From a virus (lineage: Duplodnaviria > Heunggongvirae > Uroviricota > Caudoviricetes): 44,464 nt of DNA. Position 1 is the first letter of the stretch, and each line of letters starts with the position of its first letter. Made by a program: the position numbers and the translations under genes. Positions 22,934 to 44,464 of this stretch are shown one piece after another. Below the pieces are notes generated by a model that was not told the origin of the DNA, ran no database searches, and saw nothing but the letters and a program-made list of their open reading frames with translations. The stretch is taken from the IMG/VR virus record IMGVR_UViG_2571042862_000006, positions 1-44,464 of that record. One strand, written 5' to 3'.

Positions 22934-22963
22934 ATTATGGCTAAATGGATAATTGCATGTCAA
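22934..22963 (-). promoter_or_regulatory. Candidate late promoter (pR'-like) overlapping the Q stop codon
   Basis: TTGACA, 18-bp spacer, CATAAT on the minus strand. Not verified; the transcript to the terminator would be only about 45 nt. Confidence 0.35.
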
Positions 22964-23459
22964 GGTTTTTAACAGCAACATGCTTAACTTTCTCAACACG
23001 TTTACGCATTTTGAAAGCATTTTGCATTGGTTGGTACAAAACAAATAATGACGCTTTCAGGATATCGTCAATTTCGTTTCTACAGGTTGCCAGTGAAGGT
23101 TTTCTCCATCCCTCGCCACCGCGTCCACACATCTTGCGTGGCTTTGCAGTCGCGTGATAGTAGGATGCAATTGCTCGCTTAGATGAACCATGAGCGTAGT
23201 AGCTGAGGAGGATGCCAAAGGCTTTCTTGTCAATGCACATGACAGAATCGACGACCTGAGAAATCAACATTCCATCATCATCATTGCACATTGGCCTTGT
23301 CATAACTCTTCCCGGCTCTACGCTCTCCATGAACTTCGCTATTACGCTGCTCATGCGCTTTTCCAGACGACCTGAATAAACCCATGCGCCCCACAGTTCA
23401 AGCCAGCCATTCAGCCACTCATGCTGTTCTTTGGTGAGGTTTAGTTCTCTTATGCCCAT
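22941..23459 (-). CDS. Q: Late-gene antiterminator Q (QuuD-like family, not lambda Q)
   Basis: Position directly upstream of the lysis cassette; blocks [11 protein letters not shown] and [16 protein letters not shown] resemble DLP12 QuuD-type Q proteins. Confidence 0.7.
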
Positions 23460-24121
23460 GCGCCTTCTCCCTGTACCTGAATCAATGTGAGGTTTCCGCA
23501 GAACACTGCGCCGGTATCGATATACATCTGGTTGGCAAACTTGAGTGGTTTCACTGCTGGCGTATGACCAAAGATGAACGTGTCCGCTCCTTTGATTTCT
23601 TTCACGATCCCGTCTTGTGAGTTGCTGATTCGTTCGCGGTTCCAGATTACCTGCTGATGATCAACTGACTTTCCAAACTCGTATTCGTTACAAGGATAAT
23701 CGGCGTGGCAAATGACATATTTTTTATCTTTGCTCACCAGCTCGATGATTAACGGAAGTTCATCTGCTTTATGGGCAAGAGCTTTAGCCAGAATTTCTTT
23801 GTCGTAATCGAGATTAAAGAACCAGCCACCGCCATTAAACAGCCAGTGATTGACGTTTCCACGCTCTGATAAGCCATCAATCATCATTTGCTCATGGTTT
23901 CCACGTACAGCTCGGAACCAGGGGAATGTGATTAATTCCAGACATTCGACGTTCTCTGTACCGCGATCTACCAAATCGCCAACCGAGATAAGCAGGTCTT
24001 TTTTGGTGTCGAATCCTATCGTCTCCAGTTTTTTCATCAGGTTCGTGTAGCATCCGTGCAGATCGCCAACTACCCAAATATTTCGGTATTTGCTGCCATC
24101 AATTCTTTCGTAATAGCGCAT
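23450..24121 (-). CDS. Ser/Thr protein phosphatase (lambda NinI-like)
   Basis: From [25 protein letters not shown] the sequence matches the lambda phosphatase, including GDLVDRG and GNHE metallophosphatase motifs. Confidence 0.85.
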
Positions 24122-24305
24122 CTCTTTCACTCCATCCGCGATGAACCATAAGAACGTCGTTGACGATGGCGTGCATTTTCCCGTCTTTATCATCAACGTA
24201 TTTTCTGACCGTACCGCGACTACATTTCAGTCTGCGTGCTACTTCTGTCTGGTTTCCGTATGCTTCAACGAGCATGTCTGGAATGGTTTTTACTGAGAAC
24301 GTCAT
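24099..24305 (-). CDS. ninH: NinH
   Basis: 68 aa, matches lambda NinH ([26 protein letters not shown]...). Confidence 0.85.
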
Positions 24306-24913
24306 GCGGCCTCACTTCTGCTATTTCGCAGGTCTTTGAGTTTCTGTTGGTACTCTGCCTTGATCGCCTTGCACTCTTCGATAGTCCAGCGATGGCGGTT
24401 ATGGTTTGATTCGATTTCGTCTACTGCTTCCTGCCCGATGCGATTAATCAGTTCGACGCGATACGGAACGAGATTTCCGCTTTTGTGCTGGTTGCACACC
24501 ACGCATTGCTTGTGAATATTGCGTTCATCAAATCGGAGTTGAGGTGCCGCAGCAGTTGTCCGGTAATGTCCGGCATCCCACTGAGCAGACGTGAGCGTTC
24601 CGCACGAGATACATGGTAAGTCGCGGTCTCTTTCTCTGATGAAGGCGTTTACGGCTTGTTGGGCTTGTTTAATCCAGTAACTGCGGGGCTTTAAGGCGAG
24701 TTTTCGAATCTTAAGTTTATCTTTCTGTTTCTGCTCCTCTCGTCGTCGTTTCTTCTCTGCTGCTTTTTCCGCTTTTTCGCGTTCTTTGCTTCGTCGTTCG
24801 AGTGCTATCTTGGTTCCACACTCTGGAGAGCACCACCACTGATTAGCGAATGCAGGGTGAAACCATTCCCGGCATTCATCGTTTTTACATCGTCTTCGCG
24901 CTGGTTTAGCCAT
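24302..24913 (-). CDS. ninG: NinG (Rap-like recombination endonuclease)
   Basis: 203 aa with the Cys-rich N-terminus typical of lambda NinG ([12 protein letters not shown]...CSPEC). Confidence 0.85.
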
Positions 24914-25182
24914 TATGGTTCGCTCCAGTAATTCTCAATTGCAGCAGCCATTCTCTGCATCCACTCTGCCAGCTTTAACGCGGCTTCTCTTTCAGAACCA
25001 CATTTAGGGAAATCCTTCATTTCCATGCTGGCCTTATATGTTCTGAATGCCAGGTCTCCGGTAATAACCAGCTCCTGATCAAGCACAGAGCGTTTATTCC
25101 GGTGTTGAACGTAATAGACAGATTCAGTCCGCATTTCTTCTCTGTCTTTTTTGAAGGAAATAAGCTCAGAGAAATCACTCAT
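24913..25182 (-). CDS. Hypothetical protein, 89 aa, inserted between ninF and ninG
   Basis: ORF translationally coupled at both ends (ATGA overlaps); no family recognised. Confidence 0.45.
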
Positions 25183-25351
25183 CGTCTTCTTCCTCGTACA
25201 TTGAGCTATTCGGATCGCTCATCAGTTCTGCGCAGCAGTGCTCACACACGTGAACTTCCAGCACATGCAGCTTCTTACCGCAGTTAGCGCACGTTAAAGC
25301 CCGCTCGACGCTTTCTTTCTGGTATTGAAGGGATTGGGATGGGCTAAGCAT
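25175..25351 (-). CDS. ninF: NinF (not in the ORF track because it is under 60 aa)
   Basis: Hand translation of the minus strand gives [58 protein letters not shown], matching lambda NinF. Confidence 0.7.
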   Translation of the reverse strand: MLSPSQSLQYQKESVERALTCANCGKKLHVLEVHVCEHCCAELMSDPNSSMYEEEDDE

Positions 25352-25716
25352 TATTGGATTCTCTGCATCATGAGAAAGACAATCATGGCGGCGCGGAGGG
25401 GATTTTCATGTATAGCTCGCTTAGATTTACAGTAGGCCACACCGCGTGCACCCCACTCGTCTTCATCGAGATTGATAATGCTAATCCTGTATTTTTCAAT
25501 AATCGGCCATGCGTCTGCTGGGTTTGCGCATGGGTTAAAGGATCCGCGCTCAACTTCTACTTCAACTGCGTCTCCGTTTACAATGTCTCCCTCAAATGAG
25601 ACAAACACCATATCGCCATTCTCACCTTCTTTGTAATCCGGTGATCCGTTATGAATGGCTTCGAATACCGCCACGTTAATTTCAAAATCACTTAACTGTG
25701 AATAATCCATTGTCAT
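25351..25716 (-). CDS. Hypothetical nin-region protein
   Basis: ORF with an acidic central region; start taken at the internal MTMDYSQL; no family recognised. Confidence 0.45.
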
Positions 25717-25889
25717 TTCCTCGCACGATGTCTTAGCCACCGGATATCCCACAGGTGAGCCGTGTAATTGAAGGTTTTTACGTCAGATTCTTTTGGGATT
25801 GGCTTGCGTTTATTTCTGGAGCGCTTCGTTGGAAGGTATTTGCAGTTTTCGCAGATGATGTCGGTGATACTTCGTCGCTGTCGTCTCAT
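25713..25889 (-). CDS. ninE: NinE-like protein
   Basis: [36 protein letters not shown]... resembles lambda NinE; start overlaps the methyltransferase stop. Confidence 0.55.
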
Positions 25890-26413
25890 GCCGCTCTCCT
25901 GACGCCCTGCCCGATCGCCATCAATGCCGCTTTGGATACGGTAGTAAACATCCGTCGAGGACTGATGAACGGTCGCCAAATCAGTAGCATGGAGCCTTTG
26001 CTGTTTCCCTTCTTCTCCAGCCCTGTCGATGGTTCGATAAAATTAATCCGTCCATCAGTGATAATGCGAACTTCGTCGACACTCTCCAGAGCCTTGCTGA
26101 ACCATCCGACTGACATATCCTCTGGCACAAGCATAACTACCGTCTGTCGCTGTTGTATGCACTGCTCAGCGGCTTTTTCCACCCACGGCCTGATATTGCT
26201 GTACGGTGGGTTATTCCAGATTGCACCGTGGCTTACCCACTCAGAATTGAGCGCGTCGTCGGCCTCAGTTAGCCAGTGAGCACACAGAGCATTTTTGTCG
26301 CTCGCTGCCGAATCCAGCCAGAATCCAAACTCAATATCCAGTGCATCAAAAAGCCAAAGCGGCGTTTGCCAGCAGTCCTTGTCGTGTGCTGGCGTATTTG
26401 ATTTGATAGTCAT
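25886..26413 (-). CDS. Orphan phage-type DNA N6-adenine methyltransferase
   Basis: Catalytic NPPY motif (IWNNPPYSN) and N-terminal [11 protein letters not shown] block; start ATG overlaps the NinB stop. Confidence 0.75.
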
Positions 26414-26850
26414 GCAGCCCGATCTCCCCATCGCGCTTTCCATTCGAGAGCCAGTCGCGCTTCGTCTGACCACTTAACGCCACGTTCTGTACCGAATGCC
26501 TGTATAAGCTCTAATAGCTCCGCAAATTCGCTTACACGCATCCTGCTGGTTGACTGGCCTATTACCACAAAGCCATTCCCGGCAAGGTTAGGAACAACAT
26601 CCTGCTGCTTTAATGCTGCGGTAAACACACACTTCCAGCTTTCTGCATCCAGCCAACGCCCATGCCATTCAACCTGACGAGAGACGTCACCTAAGCAGGC
26701 CCATAGCTTCCTGTTTTGGTCTAAGCTGCGGTTGCGTTCCTGAATGGTTACTACGATTGGTTTGGTTGGGTCTGGAAGGATTTGCTGTACTGCGTGAATA
26801 GCGTTTTGCTGATGTGCTGGAGATCGAATTTCAAAGGTTAGTTTTTTCAT
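26410..26850 (-). CDS. ninB: NinB (Orf-family recombination mediator)
   Basis: From MKKLTFEIRSPAHQQNAIHAVQQILPDPTKP the protein is near-identical to lambda NinB. Confidence 0.85.
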   Translation of the reverse strand: MKKLTFEIRSPAHQQNAIHAVQQILPDPTKPIVVTIQERNRSLDQNRKLWACLGDVSRQVEWHGRWLDAESWKCVFTAALKQQDVVPNLAGNGFVVIGQSTSRMRVSEFAELLELIQAFGTERGVKWSDEARLALEWKARWGDRAA

Positions 26851-26926
26851 GACTTCCCTCTCCCCCAAATAAAAAGGCCTGCGATTACCAGCAGGCCTGT
26901 TATTAGCTCAGTGATGTAGATGGTCA

Positions 26927-28378
26927 TCAGAATCCTCCTTTCTTCTTGGACTGCGGTTCCTCGCGTTCACGTCGGCGCATTTCAGCAGACTGTTGGTCTG
27001 TGTCATAAATAGCGCCATTTGCCTGAATGCAATACACCGTGCCGGTATTGCCATGACGATTGAGACGAAGGATCAGTTCGGTTTCACCAGGTGGAACACT
27101 GTCATCAAAAGCGCCTTCACGATGGATCCCAACCCAATAATCGCAATCCTGTTCAATCTGCCCTGTATCTCGTGAGTCACTTGGTAATGGGCGTTTATTG
27201 GTTCGGCTTTCCAGTGCGCGGTTAAGCTGTGTCAGAAGCACAACAACGCAATCAAGCTCTTTGGCAAGGTTCTTCAGTCCTTTGGTGATCATGCCGTAAG
27301 CAAGGTCGTTGCGATCGGCCTTCTCAGCGGTCATTAGTGTCAGGTAATCGACCAGAATCATGCCAACACATCCTTTTTCTCGCTTGATTCGACGGCTTTC
27401 GCTGACGATTTGAGCCAGAGATAATCCCGGCGTGTCGTCGATGTAAAGCATGTCGATTTCACTCAAGCGATTAGCTGTTTCGATCGCCCTGTTGAAGTCA
27501 CCATCGTAATCACCCTGATAGCCGTCATCAGCGTCATTTGTCGCCGGAAGGTAAAAAATATTCGGGTTAACACCTGACTTCTGTCCTACCAGTTTTTCCA
27601 GTATCTGGTCACCGGGCATTTCAAGGCTGAACATCAGAGCGGGCTTTTTCTCATGCACTGCGCAGTTGATTGCCATCTGGCTGTATAGCGTCGTTTTCCC
27701 CATCTTAGGGCGAGCGCCAATGACAAACAGAGAGCCTTTCACCAGACCTTTCGGTGACAGCATCCTGTCCAGCGATGGGATCCCTGTGCTCATTCCTCGT
27801 TGTTCGCCTGACGGGTCAAATCGCTTCTCAAGGTCGCTAACCCAGTCTTCCATGACCTCACCAAATGAGCGAAGGCCGCGACGCGATCCGGTTTTTGCAT
27901 GGTCTGTCAGTTGCGTGAAAATCGCCTGAATAGCTTCGTACTTCTGCGTTGCAGTCATTCCGTTGCGGGAATAGAGCAATTCCGTCGCTTCAGTCATGCG
28001 GTTGATGGCGTAGCGTTCCATTGCGGTTTCACGAACCTGCATTGCATAGGCAACGATGTTTGCTGCGCTTGGCGTGTTCTTTGCGATCTCAGCGATATAA
28101 GCAAAACCGCCAACAGACACCGTTAACGATTTACGCTCCAGTTCATCGAAAAGCGTCAGGCCATCTACTGGCTTTTGCTCACGGTGCATTCTGGTTATTT
28201 CTTCGAAAATGATTTTGTGTGGTCGGCTGTAAAATGAATCAGGCTTCAGCATCGCCAGGACTTTCTGGACGCGCTCACTGCTGTCATCATCCAGAAGCAA
28301 TCCACCAATCACCGCCTGCTCTGCCTCGATGCTATGGGGCGGCGCATAAAAATTATCGGTCATCGTGTTCACCCTCAC
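26927..28378 (-). CDS. Replicative DNA helicase, DnaB-like (P22 gene 12 analogue)
   Basis: DnaB N-terminal block PPHSIEAEQAVIGGLLLD; Walker A GARPKMGKTT; 483 aa. Confidence 0.85.
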   Translation of the reverse strand: MRVNTMTDNFYAPPHSIEAEQAVIGGLLLDDDSSERVQKVLAMLKPDSFYSRPHKIIFEEITRMHREQKPVDGLTLFDELERKSLTVSVGGFAYIAEIAKNTPSAANIVAYAMQVRETAMERYAINRMTEATELLYSRNGMTATQKYEAIQAIFTQLTDHAKTGSRRGLRSFGEVMEDWVSDLEKRFDPSGEQRGMSTGIPSLDRMLSPKGLVKGSLFVIGARPKMGKTTLYSQMAINCAVHEKKPALMFSLEMPGDQILEKLVGQKSGVNPNIFYLPATNDADDGYQGDYDGDFNRAIETANRLSEIDMLYIDDTPGLSLAQIVSESRRIKREKGCVGMILVDYLTLMTAEKADRNDLAYGMITKGLKNLAKELDCVVVLLTQLNRALESRTNKRPLPSDSRDTGQIEQDCDYWVGIHREGAFDDSVPPGETELILRLNRHGNTGTVYCIQANGAIYDTDQQSAEMRRREREEPQSKKKGGF

Positions 28379-30164: not shown

Positions 30165-30812
30165 ATGAAAACGATGCATGAAATTATCGGGGAAAGGATA
30201 AAGTCCCTTAGAGAAGCTAAAGGACTTAGCCAGGCTCAATTGGCCAAGCTTTGCGGCTGGGCTGCGCCTTCACGCCTGGGGAACTACGAGTTAGGAACAA
30301 GAAAGGTTAGCGCGGATGACGCGCTGGTTCTTGGGGCGGCACTCGGCGTATCTCCGGCAAAAATAATGTTTGGCGAGGATTCAGACGCCGTATTTCGCCA
30401 ATATGAATACCCGTTATTTTCTTCAGTGCAGGCCGGGCCATTTTCGGAGGTGGGAAGCTACACAGCCAGCGATGCAAAGGCATGGGTCCCAACGACCACA
30501 AAAGCCAGCGAAAAAGCTTTCTGGCTTGAGGTGAAGGGGCATTCAATGACGGCGCCTCAGGGGGTTCGTCCAAGTTTTCCGGAAGGCATGCTGATACTCG
30601 TTGATCCGGCTGAGCCGGTAGAGTCTGGGGATTTCTGCGTGGCTTCTGCAAATGGTGATTCAGAGGCAACGTTCAAGAAGTATGAGAAGGATGCAGGGGT
30701 TAGTTACCTGGTACCTTTAAACCCGGCATATAGAACCCTGGATTGCGACCATAGCTGCCGCATCATAGGCAAGGTAGTTAAGGCGCAGTGGCCTGAAGAG
30801 ACGTTTGGCTGA
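30165..30812 (+). CDS. cI: CI-type repressor (HTH plus S24 LexA-like autopeptidase domain)
   Basis: C-terminal domain resembles the P22 C2 repressor ([13 protein letters not shown]...EGMLILVDP...ATFKKY); N-terminal HTH; true start may be the second ATG at 30174. Confidence 0.85.
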
Positions 30813-39035: not shown

Positions 39036-39312
39036 TCTGCAACTGGCAGTGAACGGCGAATACTTCGACCAGATGAAGCGGGGCGAGAAAACGGAAGAGT
39101 ATCGCCTGTGTAATGACTACTGGAATAAGCGAATTATGTTCCGGGAGTATGACCGCCTGATTATCACAAAGGGATATCCGAAGCGCGACGATTCCAGTCG
39201 CAGAATTGATGTTCCGTATGGTGGATATGAAATCAAGACAATCATACATCCACACTTCGGTGATAAACCGGTAAAGGTGTTCGCGATAAAGGTGAATATC
39301 GGCAATGAATAA
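39028..39312 (+). CDS. Small ASCH-like protein
   Basis: 94-aa ORF; GEKTEEYR and later blocks resemble ASCH/DUF3850-type proteins. Confidence 0.45.
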   Translation: MANLQLAVNGEYFDQMKRGEKTEEYRLCNDYWNKRIMFREYDRLIITKGYPKRDDSSRRIDVPYGGYEIKTIIHPHFGDKPVKVFAIKVNIGNE

Positions 39313-39384
39313 CATCCTCGCACTCGCGGGGATTTCTTTTATCTGAACTCGCTACGGCGGGTTTTGTTTTATGGAGATGATAAA

Positions 39385-39552
39385 TGCACTTCCGAGTCAC
39401 TGGTGAATGGAATGGAGAGCCATTCGACAGGGTTATCGAAGCAGAGGACATCAACGACTGCTATAACCACTGGATGATATGGGCGCAGATAGCGCATGCA
39501 GACGTAACCAATATTCGAATTGAAGAACTGAAAGAACACCAAGACGCCTGAT
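39385..39552 (+). CDS. Small ORF, 55 aa
   Basis: Hand-translated (MHFRVTGEWNGEPFDRVIE...); followed by a weak hairpin plus T-run. Confidence 0.3.
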
Positions 39553-39608
39553 GGCGGTTTTTTATTGCCTGATTTGCAGGTTCGATTCCCTATTCGGAGA
39601 TAGCACTC

Positions 39609-39809
39609 ATGCAACACGAACTACAGCCTGATTCACTGGTTGATTTGAAATTCATCATGGCCGATACTGGCTTTGGTAAAACCTTCATCTATGACCGGAT
39701 TAAGTCCGGCGACCTTCCTAAAGCCAAAGTTATCCACGGACGAGCAAGATGGTTATATCGTGACCATTGTGAATTTAAAAATAAGCTCTTAAGCCGCGCC
39801 AATGGGTAA
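39609..39809 (+). CDS. torI: Excisionase / recombination directionality factor, TorI-type
   Basis: 66-aa winged-helix protein (...FIMADTGFGKTFIYDRIKSGDLPKAKVIHGRARWLYRD...) at the prophage right end; resemblance to KplE1 TorI is from memory. Confidence 0.75.
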   Translation: MQHELQPDSLVDLKFIMADTGFGKTFIYDRIKSGDLPKAKVIHGRARWLYRDHCEFKNKLLSRANG

Positions 39810-39881
39810 AATAGCGGGTAAAATATTTCTCACATCTAAAAAACACCATTCCAATCAATCCCCTGCCGCTTCAAGTAGATG

Positions 39882-39897
39882 TCTGCAGGGGACACCA
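39882..39897. other. attR core: 16-bp copy of the 3' end of tRNA-Arg argW (CTGCAGGGGACACCAT)
   Basis: Exact match to the remembered argW 3' end / KplE1 att core, 70 bp after the excisionase and 165 bp before the second integrase. Confidence 0.6.
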
Positions 39898-40061
39898 TCC
39901 CGCTGTACACCAACGTCTACCATTGTCTATAAATCCCATGTAAACATATAAAAATAAAGAGATTTTATTCTCATGACGTCCATTTCCGTCTATTGAAATC
40001 AAGTAAATCTATGGGGCATAATTAGGGGCATTGCTGGTTCGATTGTATATGTGCCCCCAAC

Positions 40062-41348
40062 ATGTCCAGAAATACCCTCAACAAATTAACAGACCGTCAG
40101 TGCAAAGCAGCTAAGCCACGAGACAAAACTTATAAATTGTCTGATGGTGGTGGTCTTTATCTTGAAGTATCCCAGACCGGGTCGAAGTATTGGCGAATGA
40201 AGTATCGCCGCCCATCAGATAAGAAAGAAGACAGACTTGCTTTTGGTGTATATCCAACCATTAGCTTACAAGACGCCAGAGAAAAACGAGACAACGCCAA
40301 AAAGTTGTTAGTCAAGGGGATAGATCCCAAAGCAGAGCAAAGAGCAGCAAAAGCAGAAGAAAAAGGCGCATTCACTTTTGAGACAATAGGACGTCAATGG
40401 GTTGAAAGCCACCAGATGTGGAACGAAGACCACCGAAAACGCGTACTTAGAAGCCTTGAAATGTATATTTTCCCTCACATTGGCACTTCGGATATTCGCA
40501 AACTGGAGGCGATGACAATTTTACCTTTGTTTAAGAAGGTAGATGACGCCGGGAAACACGATACAGCCAACCGACTTAAACAACGAGTTAAGGACATCAT
40601 ACATAGCGCCCGTCTGAGCGGCATTAAGACAGAAATCATCACGAATGATCTCGATGTCCGGTTAATGCAATATGAAACTAAGCATCATGCCGCACTACAT
40701 CCCAGAGATTTACCAGACTTTTTCACTCGATTGGGCAGCTTTAAAGGTAATCCTCTTACCCGCCTTGCCATTGAGCTAACCATGTTGACATTTGTTCGTT
40801 CAAGCGAGTTAAGGTTTGCCCGTTGGAAAGAGTTTGACCTTGATCGGGCTGAGTGGATTATCCCTAAAAAAAGAGAGCCTATCGATGGTGTGAGGTTTTC
40901 CACCCGTGGCACAAAAACGGGAAAAGACGAACATATCGTGCTTCTTAGCCGTCAGGCTGTTTCTATTGTAAAGCAGTTGAGAGAACTAAGCGGAAGCTAC
41001 GATGTTGTGTTTCCGAATGAAAGAAACACCAAAGGCGTGATGAGTGAAAACACGGTAAACAAGGCATTACGCTTAATGGGCTATAACACGCAAGAGGACG
41101 TAACTGGACATGGATTCCGTGCCACAGCCTGTAGTTCCCTGATGGAGTCCGGTTTGTGGCAGGAGGACGCAGTAGAGCGCCAGATGAGCCACAAAGAATA
41201 TAAAGACGTTAAAAGAGCCTACAAGCACAAGGCTGATTACTTAGAAGAGCGCAAACTAATGCTTCAATGGTGGGCAGATTATCTGGACGCCAATCGAGAA
41301 ATACATATAAGCCCTTACGAGTTCGGAAGGAGAACACGCCGTGACTAA
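40062..41348 (+). CDS. Tyrosine integrase, P4-like family (second integrase)
   Basis: 428 aa; N-terminal arm-binding region (LTDRQCKAAKPRDKTYKLSDGGGLYLEV) and catalytic region (HGFRATACS...MLQWWADYLD); clearly distinct from the integrase at 1..1158. Confidence 0.9.
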   Translation: MSRNTLNKLTDRQCKAAKPRDKTYKLSDGGGLYLEVSQTGSKYWRMKYRRPSDKKEDRLAFGVYPTISLQDAREKRDNAKKLLVKGIDPKAEQRAAKAEEKGAFTFETIGRQWVESHQMWNEDHRKRVLRSLEMYIFPHIGTSDIRKLEAMTILPLFKKVDDAGKHDTANRLKQRVKDIIHSARLSGIKTEIITNDLDVRLMQYETKHHAALHPRDLPDFFTRLGSFKGNPLTRLAIELTMLTFVRSSELRFARWKEFDLDRAEWIIPKKREPIDGVRFSTRGTKTGKDEHIVLLSRQAVSIVKQLRELSGSYDVVFPNERNTKGVMSENTVNKALRLMGYNTQEDVTGHGFRATACSSLMESGLWQEDAVERQMSHKEYKDVKRAYKHKADYLEERKLMLQWWADYLDANREIHISPYEFGRRTRRD

Positions 41349-41349
41349 G

Positions 41350-42096
41350 ATGACAGGACTAGATGCGTTTTATAACGAGTCAGAAGATAAAATCTGGTTT
41401 GGTAATCTGATCAGCGAACTGGCAAGACTAAACAATGAAAATGAAAGAATGATCGCTGCCGCTATCTTAAGTAACTACAGATTGAGCAAAGCTAAACCAG
41501 ATACTTTAGGGGGGCTGGGCTTTTATCAGTTCGATTGGGTATCAGGTTTTACAACTAATGACGACTTTGAAAAGCAGTGTGTGGAGTTTTTAGGTCTTCT
41601 GGCTATGGGGCATGAATACAGGGAGAGCCCGATACCGGGGGAAGAAGGGACTTTCAACGTTAGGAAAGGGGAAGACTTTTTATATCACGATGATGAGGAT
41701 GATTGGTATGGGTCTTACGATTCGTTTTATTTCAAGCGCTCCGAGGTTGTGAACTTCTTCCCAGAACTGGATATGAATGTTCCAGATAACGAACCAGAAA
41801 TTGGAGCACTGTCAAAAAAAGTAGAAAGAGAACAAAACTGGAGAGGAAAAGATACGGCTTTAAAGATGATCGCCGGAATGGCGATTGCCTTATTTGAATC
41901 AAGCAAAGATTTCCATAGTGGAGGAAACCTTAGTATCAATAGGGTTAGTGCCCAAGTAATAGAAAACAACATAATATTCGGGAACGATGAAGACAGCGAT
42001 ACCCACCCAGATACATTTCGGAGATTGCTAACGAACGCTTTGGATAAGTACGCCCCCAAATTTAAGAAAAAAGCAACCAAAAAGCGTCCAAAATAA
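41350..42096 (+). CDS. Hypothetical acidic protein in AT-rich DNA
   Basis: About 249-aa ORF beginning immediately after the integrase stop; no family recognised. Confidence 0.5.
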   Translation: MTGLDAFYNESEDKIWFGNLISELARLNNENERMIAAAILSNYRLSKAKPDTLGGLGFYQFDWVSGFTTNDDFEKQCVEFLGLLAMGHEYRESPIPGEEGTFNVRKGEDFLYHDDEDDWYGSYDSFYFKRSEVVNFFPELDMNVPDNEPEIGALSKKVEREQNWRGKDTALKMIAGMAIALFESSKDFHSGGNLSINRVSAQVIENNIIFGNDEDSDTHPDTFRRLLTNALDKYAPKFKKKATKKRPK

Positions 42097-42252
42097 AGGA
42101 AGGATGTTCCCAAATTGTGCGTTAGAACTAAAAAATAACGCCCAATTTGGGGTAATTCTATTCCCAAAAATTTTTTCTCCAAATTCACAGAAAACTTAAA
42201 AAAACAATGATTTACTATCTCACATAGTCAAGCAACGTATTACGAGGTAGAT

Positions 42253-42444
42253 ATGAAAAAGTCGCTGATTCGGCTATCTGAGGTTTTGAAACGCACTGGC
42301 TATAGCAAGGCGTGGGTATATGCTCTGATGAGCCGAGGACAATTCCCCCAATCAGTCAAGATTGGTGCTCGCGCAATAGCTTTTATTGAAAGCGAGATCG
42401 ATGACTGGATCGATCAACGTATAGCCGAATCGCGTAGTAACTAA
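42253..42444 (+). CDS. alpA: AlpA-family transcriptional regulator
   Basis: 63-aa HTH protein (LIRLSEVLKRTGYSKAWVYALMSRGQFPQSVKIGARAIAFIESEIDDWI) matching the AlpA consensus. Confidence 0.75.
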   Translation: MKKSLIRLSEVLKRTGYSKAWVYALMSRGQFPQSVKIGARAIAFIESEIDDWIDQRIAESRSN

Positions 42445-42492
42445 AGAACAGAAACAAACAGGATACAAACAATACGTTATTAGGTATTAAGA

Positions 42493-42684
42493 ATGCAGTT
42501 GAAACCTACCAATCAAAAGCTGAACGTAACCCATGTTGATTTTGAAACCTTCGCGGCACTGATTAGATCAGAGCCACAAAAGGTGAGCACCAGCACCTGG
42601 GTTTATGATGTGAAATCCACCAGCGGTGGAAAAGCTATCGGCATTGCCTCTGGCGATGATTACTTAGTAATAGATCTGATTTAA
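42493..42684 (+). CDS. Hypothetical protein, 63 aa
   Basis: ORF only. Confidence 0.35.
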   Translation: MQLKPTNQKLNVTHVDFETFAALIRSEPQKVSTSTWVYDVKSTSGGKAIGIASGDDYLVIDLI

Positions 42685-42765
42685 TCGCACAAAAATTGTA
42701 GAGTAATTTGGGGAGACAGGAAGTCTCCTCCATATTACATTTTGGTACAACAGTAAGGGAATAAA

Positions 42766-42960
42766 ATGATTAATTACCTGACCGCTAAAGACGCAGCAGA
42801 ATATCTTGGCGTCTGTCTGTCACGCTTCTATCAGTTAAAGCGATATATCCGAAGCTTTCCTCCCTATATAAATCAGACCATCAATGGACGCAAGCGCCGG
42901 GTGTGGCTTGCCTCCAGCCTTGATCAATTTGCCGACAGATTTCTGGGGGGACGAAAATGA
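42766..42960 (+). CDS. Small HTH DNA-binding protein
   Basis: LTAKDAAEYLGVCLSRFYQLKR resembles an HTH_17/excisionase-type helix-turn-helix. Confidence 0.5.
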   Translation: MINYLTAKDAAEYLGVCLSRFYQLKRYIRSFPPYINQTINGRKRRVWLASSLDQFADRFLGGRK

Positions 42961-43343
42961 GCACTCTTACACGCTCTCAGGTCGCCGCGAATATACGCGA
43001 TATCCTACTAAGTGGCAGGAAGCTTACCCCAAAAGAGTTTGACGACATATTAAGGAAAGCCGGAAATCACGAACGTAGTCGCGTTTTAACGCTGTTACGC
43101 AACGATTGGGGAATTCCTGTTGAGCAGTTTAAAACAGAGGCGTATCACGTCACAGAACGCAATTTAGAAGCATACCACAGCGATAAAGACGAAACATTGA
43201 AGATCTGGAGGACGAACGCCAGATATGTAAAGACATTGCGTAAGGTAAACATAACGTTGTCGTTGTTGCGTGGGCTGGTGGGTAAAGTGCCTGAAGACAC
43301 GCTTAGAACTGTTTACAAGGGTATTGAAACCAAATACCTGTGA
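42957..43343 (+). CDS. Hypothetical protein, 128 aa
   Basis: ORF with ATGA overlap to the upstream gene. Confidence 0.45.
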   Translation: MSTLTRSQVAANIRDILLSGRKLTPKEFDDILRKAGNHERSRVLTLLRNDWGIPVEQFKTEAYHVTERNLEAYHSDKDETLKIWRTNARYVKTLRKVNITLSLLRGLVGKVPEDTLRTVYKGIETKYL

Positions 43344-43411
43344 TTGACAAAGCAGAAAGCCGACTTTGCGAGAGTCGGCTTTGAAGCAATTGAAATATAT
43401 GAACTTTACAC

Positions 43412-44464
43412 ATGGAATTATACGATAAAGACGCGAGTCTATCCACAAAATCACAAGCCGTAATCAATCACATCAATGGTCGCACATTAGCTTATGTGAG
43501 ATCAGTTACGCACAAACGTAATGAATTAAAGGCGGAGAATAAACGCCAATCATCAAAGGCTAACCACTGCATACCACCAGCTTGGACAAAGAAGAAATGG
43601 CGTACAATGAGGCGAGCTTTGTTTACTCTGGATGTCGAATCAACTAGTGGTATCCCCTACTCCTTTACCTTCAGACCCGTTAAGGGAACAACGCCAGAGA
43701 AATTCAACAAAGCGTTAAAGGCACTTACCAGATGGTTGACTTCGAAAGGCAATCAGTGGGTTTACGTCATGGAGTGGGCTCAACACCAGTCAGAGCCGCA
43801 TGTACACGCAATAATTATGGTGAACGAAAGAAGCATTAATGGGCAAGCAGGCAAAATTGTCAGCAAATGGGTAACACTGGCAAACAATGCAATCCCATCA
43901 AATGTTCCTCCCCAGTGGGATCTAGATTTGAAAGGTCAGCAATATTCAGAGCCTACAAGGTGTATAGGTAAACAGATTGATTACATGGCAAAACCCGAAA
44001 CTAAGTTAAATGACTTTAATAGAGAGGCGAGCAAGAGCCTATATGATTGGTCAGATGCCAACGTTTGGGGTTATTCGAATGGCTGGGCGCGGCATGAGAT
44101 AAAAAAAGAAACACTTTCTATCACTGGCTTTCATGCTGTAAGACGCATACTAAAAGCCATTCAGGCATCAAGGAAAGACAACTACAAAGTTAAGCGACAG
44201 ATACAGCGTACATTGAAACGACAAGACATAAATCGCTCACCAATCACCCCGTTCCAAGCACCGTTAATTAGCAAACACGATTGGGATTTATCAGTGATAG
44301 CGGTCACCAAAGAGGCAGAGACAGAGCGCAGGGAGTTACTATCCTCACAGACAATAAACTCGAACAAAGTACAAACCCACCCGCTGTTAAGGATGTTAAG
44401 AAAAGCACGAGTGAGAGCATCCAGAGCCAGAAGAGAAAGCGGAGGTTATGACCATTACTACTAG
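43412..44464 (+). CDS. Candidate rolling-circle replication initiator (HUH endonuclease superfamily)
   Basis: HUH-like motif (EPHVHAIIMV) and downstream Tyr motif (IDYMAKPETK); basic C-terminal tail; ORF ends at the last base of the window. Confidence 0.5.
   Translation: MELYDKDASLSTKSQAVINHINGRTLAYVRSVTHKRNELKAENKRQSSKANHCIPPAWTKKKWRTMRRALFTLDVESTSGIPYSFTFRPVKGTTPEKFNKALKALTRWLTSKGNQWVYVMEWAQHQSEPHVHAIIMVNERSINGQAGKIVSKWVTLANNAIPSNVPPQWDLDLKGQQYSEPTRCIGKQIDYMAKPETKLNDFNREASKSLYDWSDANVWGYSNGWARHEIKKETLSITGFHAVRRILKAIQASRKDNYKVKRQIQRTLKRQDINRSPITPFQAPLISKHDWDLSVIAVTKEAETERRELLSSQTINSNKVQTHPLLRMLRKARVRASRARRESGGYDHYY

Follow-up and report, generated by a model that had tools for sequence, protein, structure and literature searches.

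In the lambdoid phages lambda and P22 the nin region occupies the interval from the replication genes to the late antiterminator gene Q, is gated by a terminator, has ninB, ninE, ninF, ninG and ninH as its core and shows ATGA-type overlaps between genes, all of which recur at the locus described here. We know of no dam gene and no counterpart of the 89-codon gene treated below (orf89) in either phage, and lambda to our knowledge also lacks ninX. Tight packing with ATGA motifs is a general trait of lambdoid nin regions (PMC8022706). The Stx2 phage VT2-Sakai has a dam gene between ninB and ninE (AP000422 annotation), coding for an orphan enzyme with an NPPY motif, and in mEp235 the gene gp51 resembles orf89 and shows the same overlap with the ninF end. 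In mEp235 a rho-independent terminator is also annotated in the position of the one found here at 26875-26898, but this phage has neither dam nor ninX, and gp51 is followed by an HNH/DUF1364 gene and then RusA instead of ninG.

The sequenced phages nearest to the window, by which we mean the whole analysed stretch of 44,464 nucleotides, are IME10, vB_EcoP-683R2 and Sf6. IME10 (NC_019501) carries the helicase gene, ninB, dam, ninE, ninX, ninF, ninG, ninH and the phosphatase gene in the same order with 97.5-99.2% nucleotide identity. It differs in two respects: an additional ORF of 70 amino acids separates the helicase gene from ninB, and the 266-bp cassette with orf89 is missing, so that ninF overlaps ninG directly.

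Judged by its gene content and order, the interval 24913-26413, which runs from the orf89 stop codon to the dam ATG, is part of the nin region, i.e. the distal pR operon, of a P22-like (Lederbergvirus) E. coli prophage. Pfam and PHROG profiles named ten genes in the order ninB, dam, ninE, ninX, ninF, orf89, ninG, ninH, ninI and Q (Table 1). All genes of the interval and their neighbours lie on the minus strand, and the region extends from a DnaB-type helicase gene to Q with a terminator on its upstream side. The core genes ninB, ninE, ninF, ninG and ninH are all present and densely packed with stop/start overlaps. We favour, with a probability of roughly 0.85, the view that this is a P22-like nin region of normal mosaic gene content, in which the methyltransferase is a known phage Dam and orf89 a gene-sized accessory cassette.

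Table 1 Features of the nin region and its borders (positions in the window)
Feature	Position	Strand	Evidence or remark
DnaB-type helicase gene	26927-28378		replication gene before ninB
Intrinsic terminator	26875-26898	-	helicase/ninB gap, lambda tR2 position; 8-bp stem with 6 GC pairs, then TTTTATTT
ninB, Orf-type recombination mediator, 146 aa	26410-26850	-	PF05772 E=1.1e-54; phrog_72
dam, orphan phage N6-adenine DNA methyltransferase, 175 aa	25886-26413	-	PF05869 E=6.4e-65; TIGR01712
NPPY catalytic motif codons, Dam residues 68-71	26201-26212	-	
ninE, 58 aa	25713-25889	-	PF05322 E=7e-44
ninX (DUF2591), 121 aa	25351-25716	-	PF10765 E=3.8e-19; phrog_444
ninF, 58 aa	25175-25351	-	PF05810; phrog_672 E=1.5e-37
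orf89, 89 aa, PHROG 1258	24913-25182	-	phrog_1258 E=4.7e-38
266-bp block missing from phage IME10	24914-25179	n/a	blastn breakpoints
ninG (Rap junction endonuclease), 203 aa	24302-24913	-	PF05766 E=6.8e-92
ninH, 68 aa	24099-24305	-	PF06322 E=2.4e-44
NinI-like serine/threonine phosphatase, 223 aa	23450-24121	-	PF00149; phrog_246 E=3.4e-120
Q-type late antiterminator, end of nin region	22941-23459	-	PF06530 E=1.3e-25

The gene junctions are of several kinds. Four are ATGA overlaps (ninB/dam, dam/ninE, ninE/ninX and ninG/ninH), two are of the TAATG type (ninX/ninF and orf89/ninG), the ninF stop and the orf89 start overlap by 8 nt (ATGAGTGA), and ninH and ninI share 23 nt. The original prediction had placed a methyltransferase with an NPPY motif between ninB and ninE and an ORF of 89 amino acids between ninF and ninG, and both placements agree with our annotation, the former with ATGA overlaps on either side. 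It had also called these genes translationally coupled. Overlapping stop and start codons are indeed present, and from them we infer a probable coupling, such that the overlapping frames of the nin message would be translated one after another. The gene ninX, which lies inside the interval between ninE and ninF, had gone unmentioned in that prediction.

A search for sigma-70-like promoters within 23400-27100 returned none, compared to 4.6 expected by chance. The prophage carries a gene for a CI-type repressor (30165-30812) as well as genes for a Cro-like protein, CII, an N-type antiterminator and Q. Since a terminator lies upstream, no promoter was found in that interval and the CI, Cro-like, CII and N genes are present, we assign the nin genes to the distal early-right (pR) operon. 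The nin genes would then be transcribed only after release from CI repression and with N-type antitermination. On this architecture, CI would keep the nin genes off in the lysogen, and antitermination would allow their expression upon induction. Due to this location behind the terminator of a pR operon under a CI-type repressor, dam and orf89 are both expected to be silent in the lysogen.

The methyltransferase is, by sequence, an enzyme that is already known, the phage Dam methyltransferase M.EcoVT2Dam. It scores 218.4 bits against PF05869 (cut-off 28.1) over profile positions 1-167 of 169 and 265.9 bits against the TIGR01712 equivalog model (cut-off 97.05), and its catalytic (D/N)PP(Y/F/W) motif is intact as NPPY. 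All 175 residues are identical (100%) to those of the VT2-Sakai dam product (AP000363, AP000422), so that the two differ in their carrier only, which is the prophage of a P22-like podovirus here and a Stx-converting lambdoid phage there. A solved structure for Dam was not detectable by sequence search. No nuclease gene adjoins dam; because its neighbours are ninB and ninE, a nuclease partner is missing and the protein matches the orphan methyltransferase models ('oMTase') of PADLOC, we regard the enzyme as an orphan adenine methyltransferase, as had been predicted. Among 5426 complete E. coli genomes, 1566 (about 29%) contain DNA with at least 95% identity to dam, and in every match listed among these genomes the gene is flanked by ninB and ninE. 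The ninB-dam-ninE order, which had been put forward as a variation of the nin region, is thus a frequent one.

One prophage 'DNA adenine methyltransferase', M.EcoPA8orf6770P of a Stx prophage, prefers 16S rRNA as its substrate if bound to a partner protein (PMC10810198), and the enzyme described here could likewise be an rRNA methyltransferase that tunes prophage induction. However, M.EcoPA8orf6770P belongs to the MT-A70 family, has a DPPW motif, depends on the upstream winged-HTH partner PNB-2 and is encoded at the opposite end of its prophage (PMC10810198). The enzyme of our prophage belongs to PF05869, has NPPY, gives no MT-A70 match in Pfam and is preceded by ninB. An identity with the M.EcoPA8orf6770P type was therefore rejected as a matter of different families, and we consider a function in rRNA methylation exceedingly unlikely.

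For the known phage Dam, the target reported for M.EcoVT2Dam is GATC, according to the passage of PMC6602927 that cites Radlinska and Bujnicki (2001). Due to the complete identity of the two proteins, the enzyme encoded here should methylate the adenine of GATC. It had been suggested that the methyltransferase may protect phage DNA from restriction and that a prophage-dependent methylation motif could be seen by comparing the methylomes of a lysogen and a cured strain. An orphan enzyme with an intact NPPY motif would be compatible with a novel motif of this kind, which would be visible in lysogens and guard the phage DNA against a particular restriction system, and phage orphan methyltransferases in general can guard against restriction. 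The identity to M.EcoVT2Dam speaks against it, since it predicts GATC, as given in the cited account, and thereby the same site as that of the host Dam. In addition, dam is located within a CI-repressed, terminator-gated pR operon, and the methylomes of strains carrying M.EcoVT2Dam revealed no extra motif attributable to the enzyme (PMC6602927). A novel motif in lysogens is hence very improbable. Because the target is the same as that of the host enzyme and the gene would be silent in the lysogen, a comparison of lysogen and cured strain will probably yield no new motif. Such a null result would be a false negative and would not refute Dam activity; for genes of this kind the comparison is an unsuitable test.

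What Dam enzymes do for the phages that encode them is 'still not well understood' (PMC7556043). In P22 and lambda, the DNA packaged in virions is methylated incompletely by the host Dam (PMC8022706), and GATC is depleted in the window, with 105 sites observed versus an expectation of 172 by base composition and 223 under a Markov model. Both observations fit a role in which the phage Dam would top up GATC methylation on fast-replicating phage DNA that the host Dam leaves partly unmethylated. Progeny genomes topped up in this way would be fully modified and thereby shielded from nucleases that attack GATC in its unmethylated or hemimethylated state, namely restriction enzymes of the MboI/DpnII type and MutH. 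They would also be able to infect hosts that are poor in Dam. This top-up and protection role is our own inference.

With respect to orf89, the comparison with IME10 defines the borders of the inserted DNA. The sequences 24000-24913 and 25180-26862 of the window are contiguous in IME10 (blastn), which leaves a clean indel of 266 bp, and both ends of this block coincide with start codons of genes. Because both junctions are at start codons, the block behaves like a cassette bounded by gene borders. The ATG overlapping the ninF end belongs to ninG in IME10 and to orf89 here, and in the E. coli 7/2 prophage, whose nin region differs, ninF is followed by a KilAC antirepressor gene. The three different genes found in this position suggest that a variable cassette site follows ninF. 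The cassette, placed exactly at the start-codon junction of ninF and ninG, would provide a small acidic protein early in infection; the pI calculated for the protein is 5.4.

Residues 2-89 of the protein align to positions 9-97 of the 97 positions of the PHROG 1258 profile (E=4.7e-38), a family of unknown function. The ORF had been described as unrecognised and a profile search had been recommended. This search shows that the gene lacks an assigned function, as expected, but belongs to a recorded family, whose members in mEp235, ECP1, SPN9CC and other phages are annotated as 'hypothetical protein'. The proteins of mEp235 (gp51, YP_007111627), ECP1 and phiv205-1 are 100% identical to orf89, and those from a set of Salmonella P22-like phages show 98% identity. 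More distant homologues with 35-44% identity are N15 gp44, phiKO2 gp43, HK225 gp58 and proteins of P1-like plasmid prophages, including RCS47. These share the segment DFP...LKLA(D/E)W..R with orf89 and are located in early or accessory regions of temperate phages, but N15, phiKO2, HK225 and RCS47 carry the gene in other slots with other neighbours, and all these homologues are unannotated. An exhaustive profile search extended the family to 67 clusters at 50% identity, which consist of small proteins throughout. All named members are from Enterobacterales and are annotated 'hypothetical', and the members found here are confined to temperate phages and prophages of this order, always in early or accessory regions. 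The best conserved parts of the family are W74, R77 and the loop plus helix segment DFP...EAALKLA(D/E)W..R.

The pattern of nucleotide substitution indicates that orf89 is a real gene under purifying selection. Every nucleotide difference to mEp235 is synonymous (dN 0, dS 0.081), and in comparison with Cronobacter and Rahnella dN amounts to 0.15-0.23 and dS is saturated. An ORF this short, for which no domain was matched, could be a chance ORF or a remnant instead of a functional gene. The exclusively synonymous changes relative to mEp235 and a dN far below dS relative to other genera argue against this, as do the 67 clusters of the family, a confident AF2 model of the protein and the stop/start overlaps kept at both ends of the gene. 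We regard the chance origin as already refuted by selection, family, AF2 and overlap evidence, and hardly any likelihood is left for it.

Searches for a function of the real gene gave few leads. Apart from PHROG, the orf89 query had no match in Pfam, NCBIfam or PADLOC, and among PADLOC, Pfam, NCBIfam and solved structures of known function no membership in a known defence or anti-defence family was found. One of 53 family members matched a fragment of an Rv2179c-like exonuclease (Pfam) by its N-terminus, most likely as a fusion with, or miscall of, a neighbouring gene. A match of one member to NF008256 (NCBIfam, E=0.016) recurred in none of the others among 47 members and was discarded as a chance hit. 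When the orf89 profile was compared with PDB sequences, nothing scored below E=0.29. Two AF2 models were obtained with pLDDT values of 79.6 and 90.8; the latter, built from 47 sequences, consists of four antiparallel strands and a C-terminal helix. Foldseek searches of the PDB with both models yielded no hit with E <0.1 or a TM-score >0.53, the best values for the model with pLDDT 90.8 being E 0.12 and TM <=0.51, and the only significant match in BFVD is an unnamed homologue. Literature on the gene was not found. The protein is probably neither an enzyme nor a DNA binder, and we suppose, with low confidence, that it might be dispensable, serve as an accessory factor in the early phase and act through binding to a protein of the host or of a competitor.

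The occurrence of the gene bears on what this partner might be. orf89 DNA is present in 148 of the 5426 complete E. coli genomes, and among the matches listed it always follows ninF and precedes ninG or a DUF1364 gene. Both an anti-defence or host-takeover role and a link with the resolvase module are possible. In the former case, orf89 would bind and block a factor of the host or of a rival phage early in infection. The small size and acidic nature of a product predicted to be early, the sporadic distribution, the movement of the cassette among lambdoid, P22-like, N15-like and P1-like phages, the high conservation of the loop plus helix segment and the absence of enzymatic or DNA-binding signatures are consistent with this idea. 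However, orf89 resembles no known anti-defence protein and has no context related to PADLOC systems, and the same features are no less typical of accessory phage genes that serve many other purposes. We therefore regard an anti-defence or host-takeover function as a speculative proposal that is rather unlikely to be correct.

Alternatively, orf89 could be an accessory recombination factor that acts with the resolvase module encoded downstream, either NinG/Rap or the HNH protein plus RusA. The close subfamily is located directly before ninG in the window, in Cronobacter, which has the same ninF|orf|ninG slot, and in Rahnella, where ninG is the next gene downstream of the homologue; in mEp235 and some E. 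coli prophages the gene precedes the DUF1364/HNH-RusA pair. The distant members from Proteus, Providencia, N15, Serratia and P1-like elements, however, adjoin no resolvase gene: those of Proteus and Providencia lie just past the replication genes, and the one of Serratia is found among uncharacterised genes of another integrated element. Across N15, HK225, RCS47, Proteus, Providencia, Serratia, Cronobacter and Rahnella no conserved partner gene was detected, and IME10 has the same ninG without orf89. A function together with the resolvase is consequently improbable, clearly more so than the blocking of a host or rival factor.

Within the preferred view of a normal mosaic nin region, both features are ordinary and already on record, one as a reported GATC enzyme in its usual slot and the other as a widely annotated hypothetical gene. 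Little is at stake for dam, since its product is identical to an enzyme that has already been cloned and is described as GATC-specific in the account cited above, and the ninB-dam-ninE arrangement is among the commonest in E. coli prophages. In a broader and still more doubtful proposal, the orf89 family (PHROG 1258; N15 gp44, mEp235 gp51) would make up a class of small phage proteins, expressed early and so far uncharacterised, that neutralise a host defence or housekeeping factor, with a compact four-strand-plus-helix fold without a structural neighbour, and would have moved between the lambdoid, P22-like, N15-like and P1-like temperate phages of Enterobacterales as a cassette the size of one gene. 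Being small, well conserved, under selection and confidently modelled, the family could reasonably be included, at low priority, when accessory genes of phages are screened.

Homology to P22-like phages stops at about 39,900, and beyond it lies a second element (40062-44464). This element encodes a tyrosine integrase of its own as well as a rolling-circle replication-associated protein, together with torI and a DNA-binding protein according to the RefSeq annotation of identical DNA. DNA 100% identical to this stretch is present in E. coli 7/2, as in other strains, and the stretch has the appearance of a small integrative element that sits in tandem with the prophage. At the opposite end of the window another tyrosine integrase, whose ATG opens the window, adjoins the P22-like genome at its tailspike end, an arrangement expected of a circular phage map and not of an integrated prophage.

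Coordinates of integrases, second-element genes and doubtful calls in the window
Feature	Size	Position	Strand
Tyrosine integrase at window start	385 aa	1-1158	+
ORF antisense to dam and ninE	174 aa	25755-26279	+
CI-type repressor gene		30165-30812	
tRNA-Ala call (anticodon cgc)	83 nt	30363-30445	
Tyrosine integrase of second element	428 aa	40062-41348	
Rolling-circle replication-associated protein		43412-44464	

Since the DNA of E. coli 7/2 is identical to window positions 39300-44464, a putatively corresponding chromosomal locus (NZ_CP023820.1, 2749200-2754700) was placed by extrapolation from this identity. The nin region of the prophage found there contains ninB, ninE, ninF, a KilAC antirepressor, DUF1364, RusA, ninH and Q, whereas dam (the Dam-family methyltransferase gene), ninX, orf89 (the 89-aa ORF between ninF and ninG) and ninG of the window are all absent from this extrapolated position. 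The closely related phage IME10 differs upstream of ninB, as it carries an unannotated, cysteine-rich ORF of 70 aa between the helicase gene and ninB (4063-4275 of the IME10 locus L001), while this interval in the window lacks the ORF and consists only of the terminator and a 76-nt spacer.

Two calls that lie within or opposite other genes are doubtful. The tRNA-Ala predicted by ARAGORN within the CI-type repressor gene is probably a false positive, and the ORF on the strand opposite dam and ninE most likely arose by chance as a shadow ORF.

GATC sites are under-represented in the whole window: 105 are observed, where base composition predicts 172 and a second-order Markov model 223. For a phage encoding its own GATC methylase, Dam, this scarcity is notable.
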